22,262 nucleotides of DNA from a virus (taxonomy: Duplodnaviria > Heunggongvirae > Uroviricota > Caudoviricetes), in the IMG/VR virus record IMGVR_UViG_3300045988_036280, positions 1-22,262 of that record; one strand, given 5' to 3'. Under the pieces are notes generated by a model. The model was not told the origin of the DNA. It searched no databases and worked only from the letters and a program-made list of their open reading frames with translations. Positions 1,135-15,718 of this stretch are shown in pieces (within the stretch, counting starts at the first letter, position 1; each line of letters begins with the position of its first letter). The position numbers were made by a program, and so were the translations under genes.

Positions 1135-1623
1135 ATGGCAGCACCAAAGGGCAACCGATTTTGGGAGGCCCGCAGTAGTCATGGGCGAAAACCTAAATTC
1201 GAATCGCCTGAGGCGCTGTGGGCTGCTTGTTGTGAATACTTCGAGTGGGCTGATGATAACCCGCTATGGGAGGGTAAGGTATTTTCATATCAGGGAGAAA
1301 TAATTAAGGCTAATGTCCCTAAGATGCGAGCCATGACTATTTCAGGATTGTGTACCTTCCTTGATATCACCAGGCAAACATGGGGAACCTTCCGGTCAAT
1401 GGAAGGCTTTTCTGACGTCACATCACGAGTGGAAGACATCATCTACGACCAGAAATTCTCTGGCGCAGCTGCTGACCTTCTCAACGCTAACATCATCGCC
1501 CGTGATTTGGGCCTCAAAGAGCAGTCGCAAGTTGAAGACGTGACACCTGATAAGGGAGATCGCGATAAGCGGCGCTCTCGTATCAAGGAGCTATTCAACC
1601 GTGGAACTGGACGCGATTCTTGA
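1135..1623 (+). CDS. 3: Terminase small subunit, P22 gp3-like (162 aa)
   Basis: N-terminus [38 protein letters not shown] matches P22 gp3 as recalled; same length; overlaps terL start by 23 nt. Confidence 0.9.
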
Positions 1624-3100
1624 TAACTTGAGCGACGAAGAGCAAATCGAATTGCTCGAGCTACTCGAAGAAGAAGAGAACTACCGTAACACACACCTGC
1701 TATATGAATTTACGCCATACAGCAAACAGCGTGAGTTCATCGACGCCGGGCATGACTATCCAGAGCGCTGTTTTATGGCTGGTAACCAGCTTGGTAAGTC
1801 ATTTACTGGTGCTGCTGAAGTCGCGTTTCACCTTACCGGGCGTTATCCGGGCACAAAAGGCTATCCTGCTGATGGTAAATATGGCGGTGAGTGGAAAGGT
1901 AAGCGTTTTTATGAGCCTGTTGTCTTTTGGATTGGTGGCGAGACAAACGAGACTGTAACCAAAACGACTCAACGCATCCTGTGTGGTCGTATCGAAGAGA
2001 ATGGTGAGCCAGGCTACGGTTCCATACCTAAAGAAGACATCATTAGCTGGAAGAAGTCTCCTTTCTTTCCGAACCTTGTTGATCACCTTCTGGTTAAGCA
2101 TCACACGGCTGATGGCGTTGAAGATGGCATTTCAATCTGCTACTTCAAGCCATACTCGCAAGGTCGTGCTCGCTGGCAGGGTGACACAATCCACGGCGTG
2201 TGGTTTGACGAAGAACCACCATACAGCATTTATGGTGAAGGCCTTACCCGTACCAACAAATACGGGCAATTCTCAATTCTGACGTTTACCCCGCTGATGG
2301 GGATGTCTGACGTTGTTACCAAGTTCCTGAAGAATCCAAGCAAGTCGCAGAAAGTGGTCAACATGACCATCTACGACGCTGAGCACTACACAGACGAACA
2401 GAAAGAGCAAATCATCGCATCTTATCCTGAGCATGAGAGAGAGGCGCGTGCTCGCGGTATTCCTACGATGGGTAGTGGTCGAATCTTCCAGATACCGGAA
2501 GAGACTATTAAGTGTCAGCCGTTCGAGTGTCCTGATCACTTCTACGTAATTGGTGGGATGGATTTCGGATGGGATCACCCGCAGGCGCAGGTTCAGCTTT
2601 GGTGGGATAAGGACGCAGACATAATCTACCTTTCACGCGTTTGGAAGGCGAAAGAAAAGACAGCCGTTCAGGCGTGGGGAGCTGTTAAACCATGGGCGCA
2701 TAAAGTGCCAACCGCATGGCCTCATGACGGAAACCAGCACGAGAAGGGCGGCGGTGAGCAGCTCAAAGGGCAGTATGCGGACGCTGGATTTATGATGTTG
2801 CAGGAGCATGCAACATGGCCTGATGGCGGCAACGCTGTTGAGCCTGGCATCACTGAATTGCGAGACATGATGCTCGACGGTCGCTTCAAAGTATTCAACA
2901 CCTGTGAGCCATTCTTTGAGGAGTTCCGCCTCTATCACCGTGATGAAAACGGGAAAATCGTCAAGCTTAACGACGACGTGCTATCCGCCGTTCGCTATGC
3001 ATACATGATGCGCCGCTTCGCAAAAATGATGCGCGACATCAAAAAGCCAAAAGAGAAAAAGATACCAGCCCCAATCAGGCCCATCGCACGGAGAACTTAA
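1601..3100 (+). CDS. 2: Terminase large subunit, P22 gp2-like (499 aa)
   Basis: Walker A-like [13 protein letters not shown] near the N-terminus; length and sequence match P22 gp2; conserved position after terS. Confidence 0.95.
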
Positions 3101-5279: not shown

Positions 5280-6191
5280 ATGGACCAAACCACCGACATT
5301 CAGGCTTCTGAAGAATTAACCCTGCCCGGCAATCATGCAGCGGCATCTGCTGATGGCTTAGTTGTCGATAATGCCAACGACAACGCAGGTCAGGAAGAAG
5401 GCTTCGAGATTGTCCTGAAAGACGATGAGAAACCAAAACAAGACCCGGCAACTAATGCTGAATTTGCCCGTCGCCGCATTGAACGCAAACGCCAGCGTGA
5501 GCTTGAGCAGCAGATGGAAGCGGTTAAGCGTGGAGAGTTGCCGGAGCACCTGCGGGTGAACCCTGAGTTACCAAAACAACCAGACCCTAACGATTATCTT
5601 TCCGAAGATGCACTGGCTAAGTACGACTATGACCAGAGCCGCGCACTGGCTGCCTTCCAGCAGGCAAACAGTGAATGGCAGATCAAGGCTATGGACGCAC
5701 GAAGCCAGGCTGTCGCCGAGCAGGGTCGCAAAACTCAGGAGTTCACCCAGCAATCAGCGCAATACGTCGAGGCAGCCCGTAAGCACTACGACGCAGCGGA
5801 AAAGCTCAATATCCCTGACTATCAGGAGAAAGAGGATGCATTCATGCAACTGGTGCCGCCAGCAGTCGGTGCCGACATCATGCGCCTCTTCCCGGAGAAA
5901 TCCGCCGCTCTCATGTATCACCTTGGTGCTAATCCTGAGAAAACACGCCAGTTGCTGGCGATGGACGGGCAATCCGCGCTGATTGAACTCACTCGACTGT
6001 CAGAACGTTTAACTCTCAAGCCTCGAGCCAAGCCAGTTTCAGAAGCCCCGTTACCTGATGAACCCATTCAGGGACACGCTGTTGCTGCAAATATTTCTGC
6101 GATTGAAAAGCAGATGGAAGCGGCAGCAAACAAAGGGGATGTAGAGACATACCGCAAGCTCAAGGCGCAACTGAATAAAGGAATTCGATAA
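5280..6191 (+). CDS. 8: Scaffolding protein, P22 gp8-like (303 aa)
   Basis: Acidic, helix-rich 303 aa ORF between portal and coat; same length as P22 gp8. Confidence 0.88.
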
Positions 6192-7486
6192 TGGCATTAA
6201 ATGAAGGTCAACTGGTCACGTATGCTCTGGATGAAATCATCGAAACCATCCAGAACCTGACGCCAATGGCGTCTAAAGTGACAAAATACACCCCTCCGGC
6301 AGAATCCATGCAACGTTCAAGCAACACCGTGTGGATGCCTGTTGAGCAGGAAGCGCCAACTCAGACTGGCTGGGATTTAACTGGCAACGCTACCGGTATT
6401 CTGGAACTGTCCGTGAAATGCAACATGGGCGATCCGGATAACGATTTCTTCGAGCTTCGTGCAGATGACCTGCGTGATGAGCGTTCTTACCGTCGCCGCA
6501 TCCAGGCATCAGCTAAAAAACTGGCGAATAACATTGAGTCAGCAATTGCCAAACAGGCAACTGAAATGGGCTCACTTGTTGTTCACGATACCCGAGCAAT
6601 TGGTCCATCTACTGGCCTGTCTGGCTGGGATTTTGTGTCTGATGCAGAGCGCCTGATGTTCTCCCGTGAGCTAAACCGCGATATGGGCATCAGTTACTTC
6701 CTGAACCCTGACGATTACCGCAAAGCAGGCCGCAACCTGGTAGATGGTGACATCTTCGGGCGCGTTCCTGAAGAAGCGTATCGCAACGGTACTATTCAGC
6801 GTCAGATTGCTGGCTTTGATGAAATTCTTCGCTCACCGAAACTTCCGGCAGTTACCAAGTCAACCGCTACTGGTGTAACTGTTTCTGGTGCGCAGAAGTT
6901 TAAGCCGCAGGCATACACCCTTGATACCGATGGTAACAAAGAGAACGTCGACAACCGTGTTGCAACGGTAACCGTATCCTCCACCACCGGATTTAAGCGC
7001 GGCGACAAAATCAGCTTCACTGGTGTGAAATTCCTGTCTCAGATGGCGAAGAACGTGCTGACTGATGATGCTACTTTCTCAATCACCCGTGTGATCGATG
7101 GTACTCACCTCGAAATCACGCCGAAACCGATTGCACTGGATGACGCGTCACTGACAAAAGAAGAGAAGGCTTACGCTAACGTAAACACCTCTCTTGCTGA
7201 TACCACTCCGGTAAATGTTCTGAACGTGGCAACAACCACCGCTAACGTGTTCTGGGCTGATGACTCAATCCGTCTGCTGTCTCAGCCGATCCCGGTAACT
7301 CATGAACTGTTTGCTGGCATGAAAACTTCTTCCTTCAGCATTCCTGGTATTGGTGTTAACGGCATCTTCGCAACGCAGGGTGATATCAACACTCTGTCTG
7401 GTAAGTGCCGTATTGCTGTGTGGTATTCAGCATGTGCTGTACGACCAGAGGCAATTGGTGTTGGTCTGCCTAACCAGACTGCGTGA
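6191..7486 (+). CDS. 5: Major coat protein, P22 gp5-like (431 aa)
   Basis: Start overlaps the scaffold stop (TAATG); length and position match the P22 coat protein. Confidence 0.93.
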
Positions 7487-7492
7487 TAACCA

Positions 7493-7518
7493 GAGGGAGC
7501 TTCGGCTCCCTTTTTTAT
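7493..7518 (+). terminator. Strong intrinsic terminator immediately after the coat gene
   Basis: GC-rich stem gggagc/gctccc (7495-7500 with 7505-7510), UUCG tetraloop (7501-7504), then six T (7511-7516). Confidence 0.7.
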
Positions 7519-7530
7519 CTGGAGACAAGC

Positions 7531-7755
7531 ATGACACACATGATCTTTCGTCATGGCGACATGAAGAAGTGGAAAGGCGTTGGCTACGACTTTGAAATCG
7601 TGAAAGCCGAAGAGCTTCAGGAATATCTGGATGCTGGCTGGTTTTCACATCCTGATGACCTTTTGAAGGATGTTGCAGAGCCAGAAGAAAAACAGCGTAA
7701 AAAGCCCGGTCGAAAACCTAAGGCGGCAGCAGATGAACCTGACAACGAAGGGTGA
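7531..7755 (+). CDS. Small hypothetical protein (74 aa) with a basic K/R/P-rich C-terminus, inserted between coat and gp4
   Basis: ATG at 7531 preceded by GGAGA (7521-7525); product [45 protein letters not shown]...[18 protein letters not shown]; 3' end overlaps the gp4 start by 23 nt. Confidence 0.4.
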
Positions 7756-8233
7756 TTTAGTTCTTGCGGCATTACGTAAGCTCGGTGTGGCATCAAATGC
7801 CACGTTAACCGATGTCGAACCGCAGTCTATGGAAGATGGCGTCAACGACCTTGAAATGATGATGGCTGAATGGCTTGGCGGTGATGCGTCACCAGGTATC
7901 AACGTTGGCTACATTTTCGCTGATGCAGATGTCGCTCCAGATCCTGGCGATGAACACGGTTTATCAAATAACGCTATAAATGCTGTCATTTTCAACCTTG
8001 CCTGCCGCATTGCTCCGGATTATGCGCTGGAAGCGTCTGCAAAACTTATAACCACTGCCAGATACGGGAAAGAGCAACTCGTCAAACTGTCTGCAATGGA
8101 CAGAGCAAAAGCCGCTAAATGTAAGTCCGGTTATCCAAACCGTATGCCTGTTGGTAGCGGTAATCAGTTGGCGAAGTGGAACGGTTGGAATTACTTCCAC
8201 CGGAAGGAACCTTGCGATAACGGGAGCGAATAA
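7733..8233 (+). CDS. 4: Head completion / portal-binding protein, P22 gp4-like (166 aa)
   Basis: From the ATG at 7733 the product [47 protein letters not shown] matches the P22 gp4 N-terminus as recalled; the longer 187 aa ORF from 7670 is probably not the real start. Confidence 0.85.
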
Positions 8234-8338
8234 ATGCCGATTCAGCAACTTCCGCTTATGAAAGGTGTCGGCAAAGATTTCAGAAACGCCGACTATATCG
8301 ACTATCTGCCAGTGAATATGCTGGCAATTTTGATATAA
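8234..8338 (+). pseudogene. Remnant 5' end of gene 10 (34 codons: [34 protein letters not shown] then stop), cut off by the HNH cassette
   Basis: Starts TAAATG-coupled to the gp4 stop exactly where gene 10 should begin; first 31 codons are a gp10 N-terminus; reading frame leaves gp10 after codon 31 and stops 3 codons later. Confidence 0.7.
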
Positions 8339-8374: not shown

Positions 8375-8959
8375 ATGCTTTCTGAGAATGCTAAAGATAT
8401 ACCTGGATTTGAAGGTGTTTATGCCGTAACAGAAGATGGCAGGGTATATTCTCACTCACGTGTTGTTAAGGCTGCGCATGGCAGCACGCAACTCAGAAAG
8501 GGGCGCTGGTTAAAGCCTAAAATCAATCAGGGAAGGGTGCTTTATAATATCGGAGCAAAATGGACTTTTGCCCATCGAATCGTTGCAATGACATTCCTGC
8601 CAAATCCTGAAAACAAGCCTCAGGTAAATCATATTGATGGCAATCCACTCAATAATAACGTCAATAATCTTGAGTGGTGCACTCAAAGCGAAAACATCAA
8701 ACATGCATACGCCACCGGATTAAAGAAACCAATCAAGTTTTTCGGAACCAAGCACCCAAAACACAAGTTGAGTGATGACGATGTTCTTGCAATCAAGTCA
8801 TCAAAAGAAAGCTTGTCAGTAATTGCGGCTAAGTACGGGATATCTAAGACCTGGGCAAGTAGGCTAAAGCGTGATGCTAACTGGGTTCATATAAAGGTTG
8901 ATTCCAATGGCAATACAACAACTACCACTAATGAAGGGATTGGGGAAAAGTGCGGTTAA
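8375..8959 (+). CDS. HNH homing endonuclease (NUMOD4 N-terminal motif plus HNH_3 core, 194 aa)
   Basis: AAGGAG ribosome-binding site 5 nt upstream of the ATG; GFEGVYAVTEDGRVYSH (NUMOD4-like); AHRIVAMTFLPNPENKPQVNHIDGNPLNNNVNNLEWCTQSENIKHA (HNH_3 signature); C-terminal region looks like a helix-turn-helix; last ~17 codons overlap the new gp10 start in another frame. Confidence 0.85.
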   Translation: MLSENAKDIPGFEGVYAVTEDGRVYSHSRVVKAAHGSTQLRKGRWLKPKINQGRVLYNIGAKWTFAHRIVAMTFLPNPENKPQVNHIDGNPLNNNVNNLEWCTQSENIKHAYATGLKKPIKFFGTKHPKHKLSDDDVLAIKSSKESLSVIAAKYGISKTWASRLKRDANWVHIKVDSNGNTTTTTNEGIGEKCG

Positions 8960-13721: not shown

Positions 13722-15718
13722 TGGCTAAAGCATGGAAAGATGTTATCGCCTCTCCACAGTATCAGGCGTTAGCACCAGAACAAAAAGCGCAGGCTCAGGA
13801 GCAATACTTCAATGAAGTCGTGGCCCCGCAAGCCGGAGAAAATGCAGAGCAGGCTAAGCAAGCTTTCTATGCTGCCTATCCATTGCCATCTGTGCAGCAA
13901 GTGGAGACACAGCAACCAGTAGCACAGCAACAACCACAGCAAAGTGGATTTATGTCTGATCTTGGCGAAGCAGTAAAAGAGACTGGTCGCGGACTGGTGC
14001 AGGCTGGCGTGAACGTGGCAAACATACCTGCATCAGTTGCCGATGCTGTAACAAGCGCGGCGGCTTGGGCTGGCGGTAAACTCGGCATTGGCGATGGTAC
14101 ATATCAACCAGCGCCACGAGTAACAACGCAGGGATTAGAGCAGGACTTTGGCCTTCAGCAAGGCGCGCTGACTCCACAAACGACAGAGGGAAGGGTATTT
14201 GCTGAAGCATTGCCTTACCTCACTACTGCTGGCGTTGAGAGAGCGGCAGCACAGGCACCAACACTTGCTGGTCGAATTGCTCAGGGGGCAACTCGCCTTC
14301 TAGCAGAAAACGCAGTTGGATCACTTGCTGCAAATAGTGCGAAAGATGATGCGGAAGCACTCGCCACCGATTTAGGCGTTGGTGTACTTGCTGGCGGTGC
14401 TATTAACGCTGCTGGACGTGGATTAGGTGCTGCTTATCGTGGCGTTCGTGGTGCTATCGCACCAGAAGCGCAACAGGCTATCAGATTTGCAGAGCGTGAA
14501 GGAGTTCCTCTGCACACCACAGACCTGTTACAACCAACTTCCCGCGTCGGAAAAATGGCGCAGACTACAGCAGAAAATATCCCTCTGGCTGGAACAAGCG
14601 GAATGAGAGCAACGCAACAGGAAGCGAGAAGCCAGTTGGTGCAGAGATTTGCTGATAAATTCGGGGAGTATGATCCAGCGGTTGTTATTGACAGCCTTAA
14701 AGCGAAAACATCAGGAATTCGTCGTGCCGCCGGTAATCGACTGGAGCAGGTTCAGAATGCTATGGCTGGAGTAAACATTCAGCCTGCGCGAGCAATTCAG
14801 CAGATTGATACAGAAATATCTAACCTGCAGAAGCTTGGTAAGGTGGCTGATAACGAGACAATTTCAAAACTTCAGTCATATCGTGATGAGCTTGTTCGCA
14901 ATGCTGGCCCTGAAGGTCCGGTAAATCTGGATTTGAAGCAATTAAGCGACCTGCGCAGTCAGTTCAGAATGGACGTGAAGGGTGAGCGACCAGTGTTACC
15001 AAACCGTTCCGATGCTGCCATTCAGCGCGTTTACAAGGCGATGACCGACGATATCAATGGTGCCATTGGTCAGAATCTTGGCAACGATACTCTCCGTAAA
15101 TATCAGCAGGCCAATGCCGTCTACGCTGACGAAGCGGCGAAACTAAAGAATACCAGGCTGAAGAATGTTCTCATGAAAGGCGACCTGACGCCGGAAGTTG
15201 TCAACAACATGCTATTCAGCAAGAACAAATCGGAAATTAAGACGCTGTATAACTCAGTTGGTCGTGTTGGCAGGGTGCAAATGCGCAATGGCATCATTGG
15301 AAAGGCGATGGAGAAATCTGGCGGATCCCCTGACCAGTTCCTTCGGCAGCTTAACATCCTGCAAAACCAGACTGGCATCACATTTAAGGGGCAGGACGCT
15401 GCTTATCTGAAAGGATTGAAAAATTACCTTCAGTCCACTCAGCAGGCAGCAAAAGCGGCAGTAACAACACCAACAGGGCAGCAAACCATCCCGTTCATTA
15501 TCGGGTATGGGACGGCAATGAACCCGGCGACAACTGGCGCAGCAGTAAGCTACGGACTTCTTACTCGCGCCTATGAGAGCGAACCATTCAGAAATGCAAT
15601 GCTCCGAATGGCAAACACCCCACGCGGATCAACAGCGTTTGAGAAAGCCATGCAGCAGGCGCAAAAGGCCATTAACGCCCTGACTCAGGGTGCCAAGTCT
15701 GATGCGTTGTCAGAATAG
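13721..15718 (+). CDS. 16: Ejection protein gp16-like (665 aa)
   Basis: ATGA overlap with the gp20 stop; last gene of the P22-type ejection-protein trio; longer than P22 gp16 (609 aa as recalled). Confidence 0.8.
   Translation: MAKAWKDVIASPQYQALAPEQKAQAQEQYFNEVVAPQAGENAEQAKQAFYAAYPLPSVQQVETQQPVAQQQPQQSGFMSDLGEAVKETGRGLVQAGVNVANIPASVADAVTSAAAWAGGKLGIGDGTYQPAPRVTTQGLEQDFGLQQGALTPQTTEGRVFAEALPYLTTAGVERAAAQAPTLAGRIAQGATRLLAENAVGSLAANSAKDDAEALATDLGVGVLAGGAINAAGRGLGAAYRGVRGAIAPEAQQAIRFAEREGVPLHTTDLLQPTSRVGKMAQTTAENIPLAGTSGMRATQQEARSQLVQRFADKFGEYDPAVVIDSLKAKTSGIRRAAGNRLEQVQNAMAGVNIQPARAIQQIDTEISNLQKLGKVADNETISKLQSYRDELVRNAGPEGPVNLDLKQLSDLRSQFRMDVKGERPVLPNRSDAAIQRVYKAMTDDINGAIGQNLGNDTLRKYQQANAVYADEAAKLKNTRLKNVLMKGDLTPEVVNNMLFSKNKSEIKTLYNSVGRVGRVQMRNGIIGKAMEKSGGSPDQFLRQLNILQNQTGITFKGQDAAYLKGLKNYLQSTQQAAKAAVTTPTGQQTIPFIIGYGTAMNPATTGAAVSYGLLTRAYESEPFRNAMLRMANTPRGSTAFEKAMQQAQKAINALTQGAKSDALSE

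Follow-up and report, generated by a model that had tools for sequence, protein, structure and literature searches.

The stretch of DNA analysed here (the window, 22,262 nt, positions 1 to 22,262 of IMG/VR virus record IMGVR_UViG_3300045988_036280) contains the late (virion assembly) operon of a P22-like Escherichia coli phage, in which the terminase genes (1135–3100) are followed by the genes for portal, scaffold, coat, gp4 and the ejection proteins (ending at 15718), the operon continuing beyond. The roles of coat and gp4 were derived from Pfam, and the remaining roles were assigned by the P22 gene order. Our subject is the junction between the coat gene and gp4, where a hairpin resembling an intrinsic terminator is followed by a small open reading frame (ORF) of 74 aa (Table 1). 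As described in the original prediction, made from the sequence of this region with coordinates (7487–7755) that take in both the terminator and the ORF, the hairpin has a GC stem, a UUCG loop and a T6 run, the ORF has a GGAGA ribosome-binding site, and its 3' end overlaps the gp4 start by 23 nt; the hairpin starts 5 nt past the coat stop. The same prediction, however, placed gene 4 of P22 directly after gene 5, and hence considered about 245 bp of the window to be inserted and the ORF to be an extra gene absent from P22. We arrive at a different view: the ORF is very probably the orthologue of P22 orf69 and epsilon34 gene 6, and the post-coat junction is an ordinary one for a P22-like late operon, with no insertion.

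In P22-pbi (AF527608) the coat gene is followed by a repeat_region noted as ‘RNA stem-loop’ 5 nt past the coat stop, then by orf69 (69 aa), and then by gene 4, which overlaps orf69 by 17 nt. The distance from the coat stop to the start of gene 4 is 231 bp in P22 and 246 bp in the window, so that neither the direct adjacency of genes 5 and 4 nor an insertion of about 245 bp holds, and the annotated homologue in P22 is an outcome that the original prediction itself had named as contradicting an extra gene. The product of the window ORF is 37% identical to P22 orf69 (AAM81390.1) over 70 residues (BLASTP, E = 1e-11). In the profile search it matches phrog_1175 over the full length (E = 5.6e-37, residues 1–72 of the 72-position profile), as does P22 orf69, end to end (PHROG 1175, E = 4.5e-31); the same profile is matched by Sf101 gp06, by a protein of Proteus phage V3, and by the N-terminus of epsilon34 gp6. 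Hence, profile, BLASTP and positional data all place the ORF in the P22 orf69/gene 6 family. The two genes share the slot between genes 5 and 4, the stem-loop ahead, the 3' end overlapping gene 4, the N-domain motif EL.EY...GW..HP..LL and the GRKPKA tail; on the other hand, P22 orf69 has no EP (Glu-Pro) unit in its linker, and the loop of the P22 hairpin is UGCG, compared to UUCG in the window. An identical 225-nt coding sequence (CDS) is annotated in RefSeq for E. coli VCSW5 as a hypothetical protein (WP_001595516.1).

Table 1. Features of the coat–gp4 junction, in coordinates of the window.
Feature	Position	Strand	Evidence and remarks
Coat (gp5) ORF	6191–7486	+	Pfam P22_CoatProtein, E = 5e-166
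Coat stop codons TGA TAA	7484–7489	+	Sequence
Intrinsic-terminator-like hairpin and U6	7492–7516	+	Scan and fold energy; corresponds to P22 ‘RNA stem-loop’, Sf6 ‘t coat’, HK620 ‘tGP5’
Shine-Dalgarno sequence GGAGA of the small ORF	7521–7525	+	ATG follows after 5 nt, at 7531; unchanged in the 7 close relatives
Small late gene, 74 aa	7531–7755	+	Very probable orthologue of P22 orf69/epsilon34 gene 6; PHROG 1175
N-terminal folded domain, aa 1–48	7531–7674	+	AlphaFold prediction; invariant G36, W37, P41
Linker AEPEE with the (EP)n repeat, encoded by (GAGCCA)n	7675–7689	+	n = 1 in the window
Basic motif, aa 54–64, AT-hook-like, without GRP core	7690–7722	+	Predicted disordered
Shine-Dalgarno sequence AAGG of gp4	7720–7723	+	Inside the K-A codons of the small ORF
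Overlap of the small ORF and gp4, 23 nt	7733–7755	+	Acidic ORF end DEPDNEG and stop against gp4 start
gp4 (head-tail adaptor/tail accessory factor)	7733–8233	+	Pfam P22_Tail-4, E = 1.6e-58; PHROG 637

The layout of a small gene behind a hairpin proved to be common to the P22-like group when the coat–gp4 junction was compared across genomes, as the original prediction had proposed to do. In Sf6 the order is coat, terminator ‘t coat’, gene 6 and the gp4 homologue, and in HK620, coat, ‘tGP5’, hkbT and gene 4. A small annotated CDS occupies the coat–gp4 slot in Sf101, epsilon34, BTP1, Proteus phage V3 and N7, and in most of the 60 gp4-containing phage records listed a small CDS runs into the start of gp4 under the name ‘hypothetical protein’, orf69, gene 6 or hkbT. 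The overlap comprises 26 nt in Sf6, 20 nt in Sf101, 11 nt in the distant metagenomic relative L019 and 0 nt in another one, L017; metagenomic homologues at 36–38% identity are still flanked by P22_CoatProtein and P22_Tail-4 genes. Homologues form 329 clusters at 90% identity in a large protein database and 35 clusters at 50% identity in a search of 1.8 billion representative proteins, and the region is present in 217 out of 5426 complete E. coli genomes. Proteins of PHROG 1175 accompany the P22-type coat, the Sf101 coat (which, according to the Sf101 paper, is more than 90% identical to that of CUS-3) and a third coat type from metagenomes; we observe no clear co-segregation of the type of the small protein with the type of coat or gp4. 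The gene and hairpin pair is thus already known, as a small late gene whose function is unknown and a hairpin annotated in P22, Sf6 and HK620.

Several records differ in how they treat this slot. The orf69 homologue is unannotated in Dewey (L001, 3271–3864), Louie (L006, 1771–2358) and IME10 (L003, 1771–2376), where the start of gp4 (Ad3) is set about 30 codons too early, within the EP-repeat region and in a different frame; in addition, the records of Dewey and Louie contain a ‘hypothetical protein’ of 45 aa overlapping the coat stop and the hairpin. The small gene is correctly annotated in APC_JM3.2 and CurroJimenez, and gp4 of APC_JM3.2 is labelled ‘recombinase RmuC’. APSE-1 (L011, AF157835) has an unannotated ORF similar to Sf6 gene 6 (ERKSVFAWSDNAAGYVQAVIV...KKGKRANDD) after the coat hairpin (approximately 1617–1790, plus strand), and the record annotates P26 on the opposite strand across the same positions. 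The prophage region is found at 99.3% identity in two assemblies labelled E. coli DH5alpha (NZ_CP026085.1 and NZ_CM135829.1), and also in E. coli W; since a P22-like prophage of this kind would not be expected in a K-12 derivative, the DH5alpha labels of these two assemblies may be wrong.

Seven phages that are 93–99% identical in the region were used for the comparison of close relatives. Among them, 11 codons of the ORF are variable, eight with synonymous changes and three with non-synonymous changes of a conservative kind (D to N, S to A, A to S). The reading frame is intact in all alleles of the repeat described below, and G36, W37 and P41 of the GW..HP motif are invariant in family members down to about 33% identity. 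Judging from this substitution pattern, the small ORF is a real gene under purifying selection. Opposite-strand and other-frame ORFs at 7427–7902 were considered as well, and both the substitution pattern and the homology fit only the plus-strand frame starting at 7531.

These data also bear on the option, raised in the original prediction, that the gene was inserted in this phage relative to P22, possibly as a moron with its own expression signals. Such an origin could be suspected from the terminator immediately upstream and the strong ribosome-binding site; however, the homologous orf69 occupies the same slot in P22, the gene is present in all P22-like phages examined rather than sporadically, and no promoter-like site was found between 7487 and 7531. 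Moreover, the GC content of the small gene (0.47–0.49) equals that of its flanks, unlike the truly inserted HNH gene of the window (0.39–0.41, see below). We therefore reject both an insertion relative to P22 and the moron option, and retain the orthology with orf69.

In the small protein, a folded N-domain that takes up some 48 residues is followed by an EP spacer, acidic and disordered, and then by a short basic motif and an acidic end. The structure prediction, proposed along with a profile search in the original prediction, was done with AlphaFold on a 27-sequence alignment and yields a beta-hairpin at residues 2–25 and short helices at 26–34 and 41–49, with a predicted local distance difference test score (pLDDT) of 85–92 over residues 1–40, the remainder being disordered (pLDDT 50–56). 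No structural relative of the N-domain was found in the PDB, a sequence-profile search against the PDB gave no meaningful solved homologue, and the matches among predicted viral structures are to uncharacterised proteins only. Neither Pfam nor NCBIfam contains a family matching the small protein above threshold; NCBIfam gives nothing, and the Pfam hit is to DUF7302, which stays below its gathering threshold (15.5 bits compared to the cutoff of 24.9, E = 0.023) and gives a weak match in three of 25 family members.

The spacer is hypervariable in length even between near-identical phages, the (EP)n copy number in the seven close relatives being 1, 2, 5, 5, 6, 8 and 8, and the window carries the shortest allele (n = 1). 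The variation in spacer length is caused by changes in the copy number of the underlying GAGCCA hexanucleotide. Among the 120 clusters listed, the protein length ranges from 74 to 98 aa, nearly all in steps of two residues, and point variants of the EP unit (ES, EQ, DP, EL, ET) are observed.

A larger change at the same place is seen in epsilon34 gene 6, ST64T Orf-186 and BTP1_006 (PHROG 3769), which share with the window gene the position, the N-domain and the basic tail (KERKKPGPKPKA), but have a WDGH domain of about 100 residues where the window protein has only AEPEE; in epsilon34 and BTP1 this domain (PF25311, E = 1.7e-40) lies between the N-domain and the tail. The P22 version was previously described as an internally deleted form of the epsilon34-type gene (Villafane et al., PMC2629481). 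In one long-form protein with the WDGH domain (P0132, 195 aa), the C-terminal 26 residues are identical to the tail of the window protein and the N-domain is divergent, which suggests, from the sequence comparison, recombination within the small gene, with its 3' end travelling together with gp4. The hexanucleotide (EP)n polymorphism, the folded N-domain without a structural relative and the RGRP motif of distant members (see below) go beyond the sources consulted; these three details refine the description of a known gene and do not change its category.

The tail of the family follows the consensus [KR][KR][PR]G[RP][KP]PKA, and then acidic residues, with KKPGRKPKA in the window. The original prediction described this tail as AT-hook-like, and the description stands in part. 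As in the AT-hook (PF02178), a short disordered basic segment contains Gly-Arg and Pro flanked by Lys/Arg, and a true GRP is present in five of the 25 aligned family members, for example in distant homologues with RRGRPPKA and KRGRPPKAA, so that at the level of the family the sequences show a fair resemblance. For the window protein itself the description does not hold to the letter: its P-G-R-K-P-K has G-R-K-P in place of the GRP core, and the AT_hook hidden Markov model (HMM) has no match to it at E ≤ 1, matching one of the 25 family members, weakly (E = 0.047). The conservation of the tail is in part explained by the signals of gp4, as the K-A codons hold the gp4 Shine-Dalgarno sequence and the last eight codons overlap gp4. 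Still, these signals are not the whole cause, since the motif is retained in L017, where the overlap with gp4 is absent.

The hairpin consists of the stem GGGAGC (7495–7500), the loop TTCG (7501–7504), the stem GCTCCC (7505–7510) and T6 (7511–7516), with three A/G–T pairs lengthening the stem from 7492. Its fold energy is –16.1 kcal/mol (z = –3.78), and none of 200 shuffled sequences is as stable. The generic terminator scan taken alone finds five sites compared to 3.6 ± 1.9 expected, that is, no enrichment, and no Rfam family matches the region 7300–7900. All ten phages compared have a stable hairpin behind the coat stop, with double compensatory changes in two of the six consensus pairs; the stems are GGGAGC, GGGGC, GTGGGGC and GGGCGC, and the loops, UUCG, UGCG, UUAC, GUAA and UUUA. 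A T-rich run 3' of the stem is present in the window, P22, epsilon34, Sf6, Sf101, Proteus V3 and APSE-1. Overall, the element shows the hallmarks of an intrinsic terminator, a GC-rich stem-loop with a U-tract, at a site conserved with compensatory changes. In the minimum-energy fold CCAGA (7490–7494) pairs with UCUGG (7518–7522), enclosing the hairpin and covering the first two bases of the GGAGA site; this pairing, seen only in close relatives, could, according to the fold model, lower translation of the small ORF on read-through transcripts.

Several observations do not sit easily with the picture of an orthologous gene with a DNA-binding tail behind a conserved terminator. The small protein is only 38% identical to its P22 counterpart, compared to 73% for coat and 61% for gp4, which implies that the constraint on it is loose or diversifying. 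The lack of an AT_hook match in the window protein, given above, belongs here as well. Polymerase modified by Q/gp23 is expected to read through intrinsic terminators. Finally, the distant metagenomic relatives L017 and L019 keep a strong hairpin without the U-tract, and because of these two, termination may not be the conserved role of the hairpin.

The structure of the hairpin is thus better conserved than the terminator signature, which keeps a role in mRNA stability open. Instead of terminating transcription, the element could act chiefly in mRNA stability or processing by guarding the 3' end of the coat mRNA. This reading is favoured by the antitermination of late transcription in P22-like phages and by L017 and L019, where the strong hairpin lies right after the coat stop; the T-rich run, typical of intrinsic terminators, in the window and the six phages listed above speaks against it. 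The phage L genome paper (PMC8022706) calls the function of the terminator that follows the procapsid module inside the operon unknown, which leaves room for stability as well, and discusses partial termination, or a stop for transcripts made without antitermination. On balance, we hold a chiefly stabilising role to be possible, though less likely than not. The original prediction had the terminator set the expression of coat relative to the minor proteins, a reasonable proposal and not a new one, as it has already been discussed in that paper. Under our reading, the hairpin would either attenuate transcripts that are not antiterminated or stabilise the coat-proximal mRNA 3' end, and in both cases expression of the coat and procapsid genes would exceed that of the genes for head completion.

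In addition, the overlap with gp4 may couple translation of gp4 to ribosomes finishing the small ORF. Taken to its extreme, this suggests that the ORF is mainly a translated spacer, reloading ribosomes after the hairpin and handing them to gp4, with the peptide sequence being of little importance. In every relative the ORF ends at the gp4 start or beyond it (overlap of 0–26 nt), the gp4 Shine-Dalgarno sequence AAGG is within the K-A codons, the gene has been reported, for P22 only, to be non-essential (PMC2629481, which cites Eppler et al., 1991), and the protein diverges fast (38% identity compared to 61–73% for its neighbours), all of which a spacer would allow. On the contrary, the protein-like substitutions (eight synonymous to three non-synonymous) and the purifying selection seen here fit poorly with a spacer; the GW..HP motif does not vary, homologues of 35% identity share a fold predicted with confidence, the basic motif persists in L017 with no gp4 overlap, and the insertion of the WDGH domain leaves both ends of the protein intact. 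We regard such a spacer role as quite unlikely.

For the protein itself, no functional data came up in the literature searched on orf69, the WDGH domain, the proteomics of Sf6 gp6 and RNA-seq of the P22 late operon; the role of gene 6 homologues is stated to be unknown and their length to vary (PMC2629481). One option is a DNA-binding protein that is associated with the virion or injected in low copy number, being packaged with the genome or bound to it. The late-operon position among structural genes, the basic tail with true RGRP motifs in distant homologues, and the label ‘virion structural protein’ given to Sf101 gp06 point in this direction; however, the Sf101 paper reports no proteomics, so that the label lacks an experimental basis there. 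Mass spectrometry of the phage L virion leaves nine further proteins unnamed, among which such a protein could be found, but the named ones are the products of 1, 5, 4, 10, 26, 14, 7, 20, 16, 9, Dec, gp8 and gp3, and not of this gene. As the gene is also dispensable in P22, and the motif of the window protein departs from the AT-hook core and its HMM as described, with a weak match in a single family member, we regard a virion or injected protein as unlikely.

Somewhat better, although still tentatively, the data may be accommodated by a non-essential accessory of DNA packaging or head completion, whose N-domain would bind to capsid, portal or terminase and whose basic tail would touch DNA. 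The extension of this scheme to the whole orf69/gene 6 family as DNA-handling packaging or head-completion accessories, with the N-domain docking to capsid, portal or terminase, the degenerate AT-hook tail gripping DNA, and the (EP)n rod setting the distance between them, is more doubtful, about as much so as the virion protein.

Two other systems invite comparison. Sf6 gene 6 and HK620 hkbT (PHROG 3251) share with the window gene the slot behind annotated terminators, the overlap with the gp4 homologue and a similar size, and their KRGRKA basic motif followed by an acidic/Asn end resembles the layout of the window protein. BLASTP detects no similarity between these proteins and the window protein, and hhalign of the Sf6-type and the window families gives a weak match (probability 34%, E = 4e-4) of 24 columns around the G(W/F) motif; common ancestry of the two genes is possible. 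Phage lambda gpFI, a DNA-packaging chaperone, is likewise a small late protein, dispensable to leaky; its gene lies between those for the major capsid and head-tail joining proteins, and the domains of gpFI are joined by a flexible variable linker. We detected no sequence or fold similarity between gpFI and the window protein, the likeness being positional only.

A true insertion is observed elsewhere in the operon. An HNH/NUMOD4 homing-endonuclease gene (8375–8959, 194 aa; HNH_3, E = 1.9e-10; NUMOD4, E = 1.3e-8; phrog_59) is inserted between gp4 and gp10 of the window, and the GC content falls to 0.39–0.41 across the insertion. Upstream of it, at 8234–8338, lies a dead remnant of 34 codons from the 5' end of the resident gp10, matching the beginning of gp10 in IME10, Dewey and Louie at 96–98% identity, and the functional gp10 restarts at approximately 8907 with a recoded 5' end that is about 54% identical to the remnant (66 of 123 aligned columns). 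Salmonella phage UPF_BP1 shares this insertion at 97% identity, and the closest E. coli relatives lack it. Dewey (L001, 1203–1724) and Louie (L006, 1–230) have a different HNH endonuclease gene, on the minus strand, between scaffold and coat; the window has no HNH gene there, the scaffold gene ending at 6191, where coat starts.

As a discovery, the finding is of small value, and its residual value is practical and modest. The family signature could be used to correct phage records that miss the small gene and over-extend gp4, such as those of Dewey, Louie and IME10. A conserved gene that stands beside some of the best-studied assembly genes in virology is still without a known function, and its anatomy of N-domain, EP spacer and basic motif offers concrete handles for experiments. 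If the (EP)n spacer indeed sets the distance between a docked N-domain and a DNA-gripping tail, slippage of the repeat would give phage populations a ready supply of spacer-length variants.
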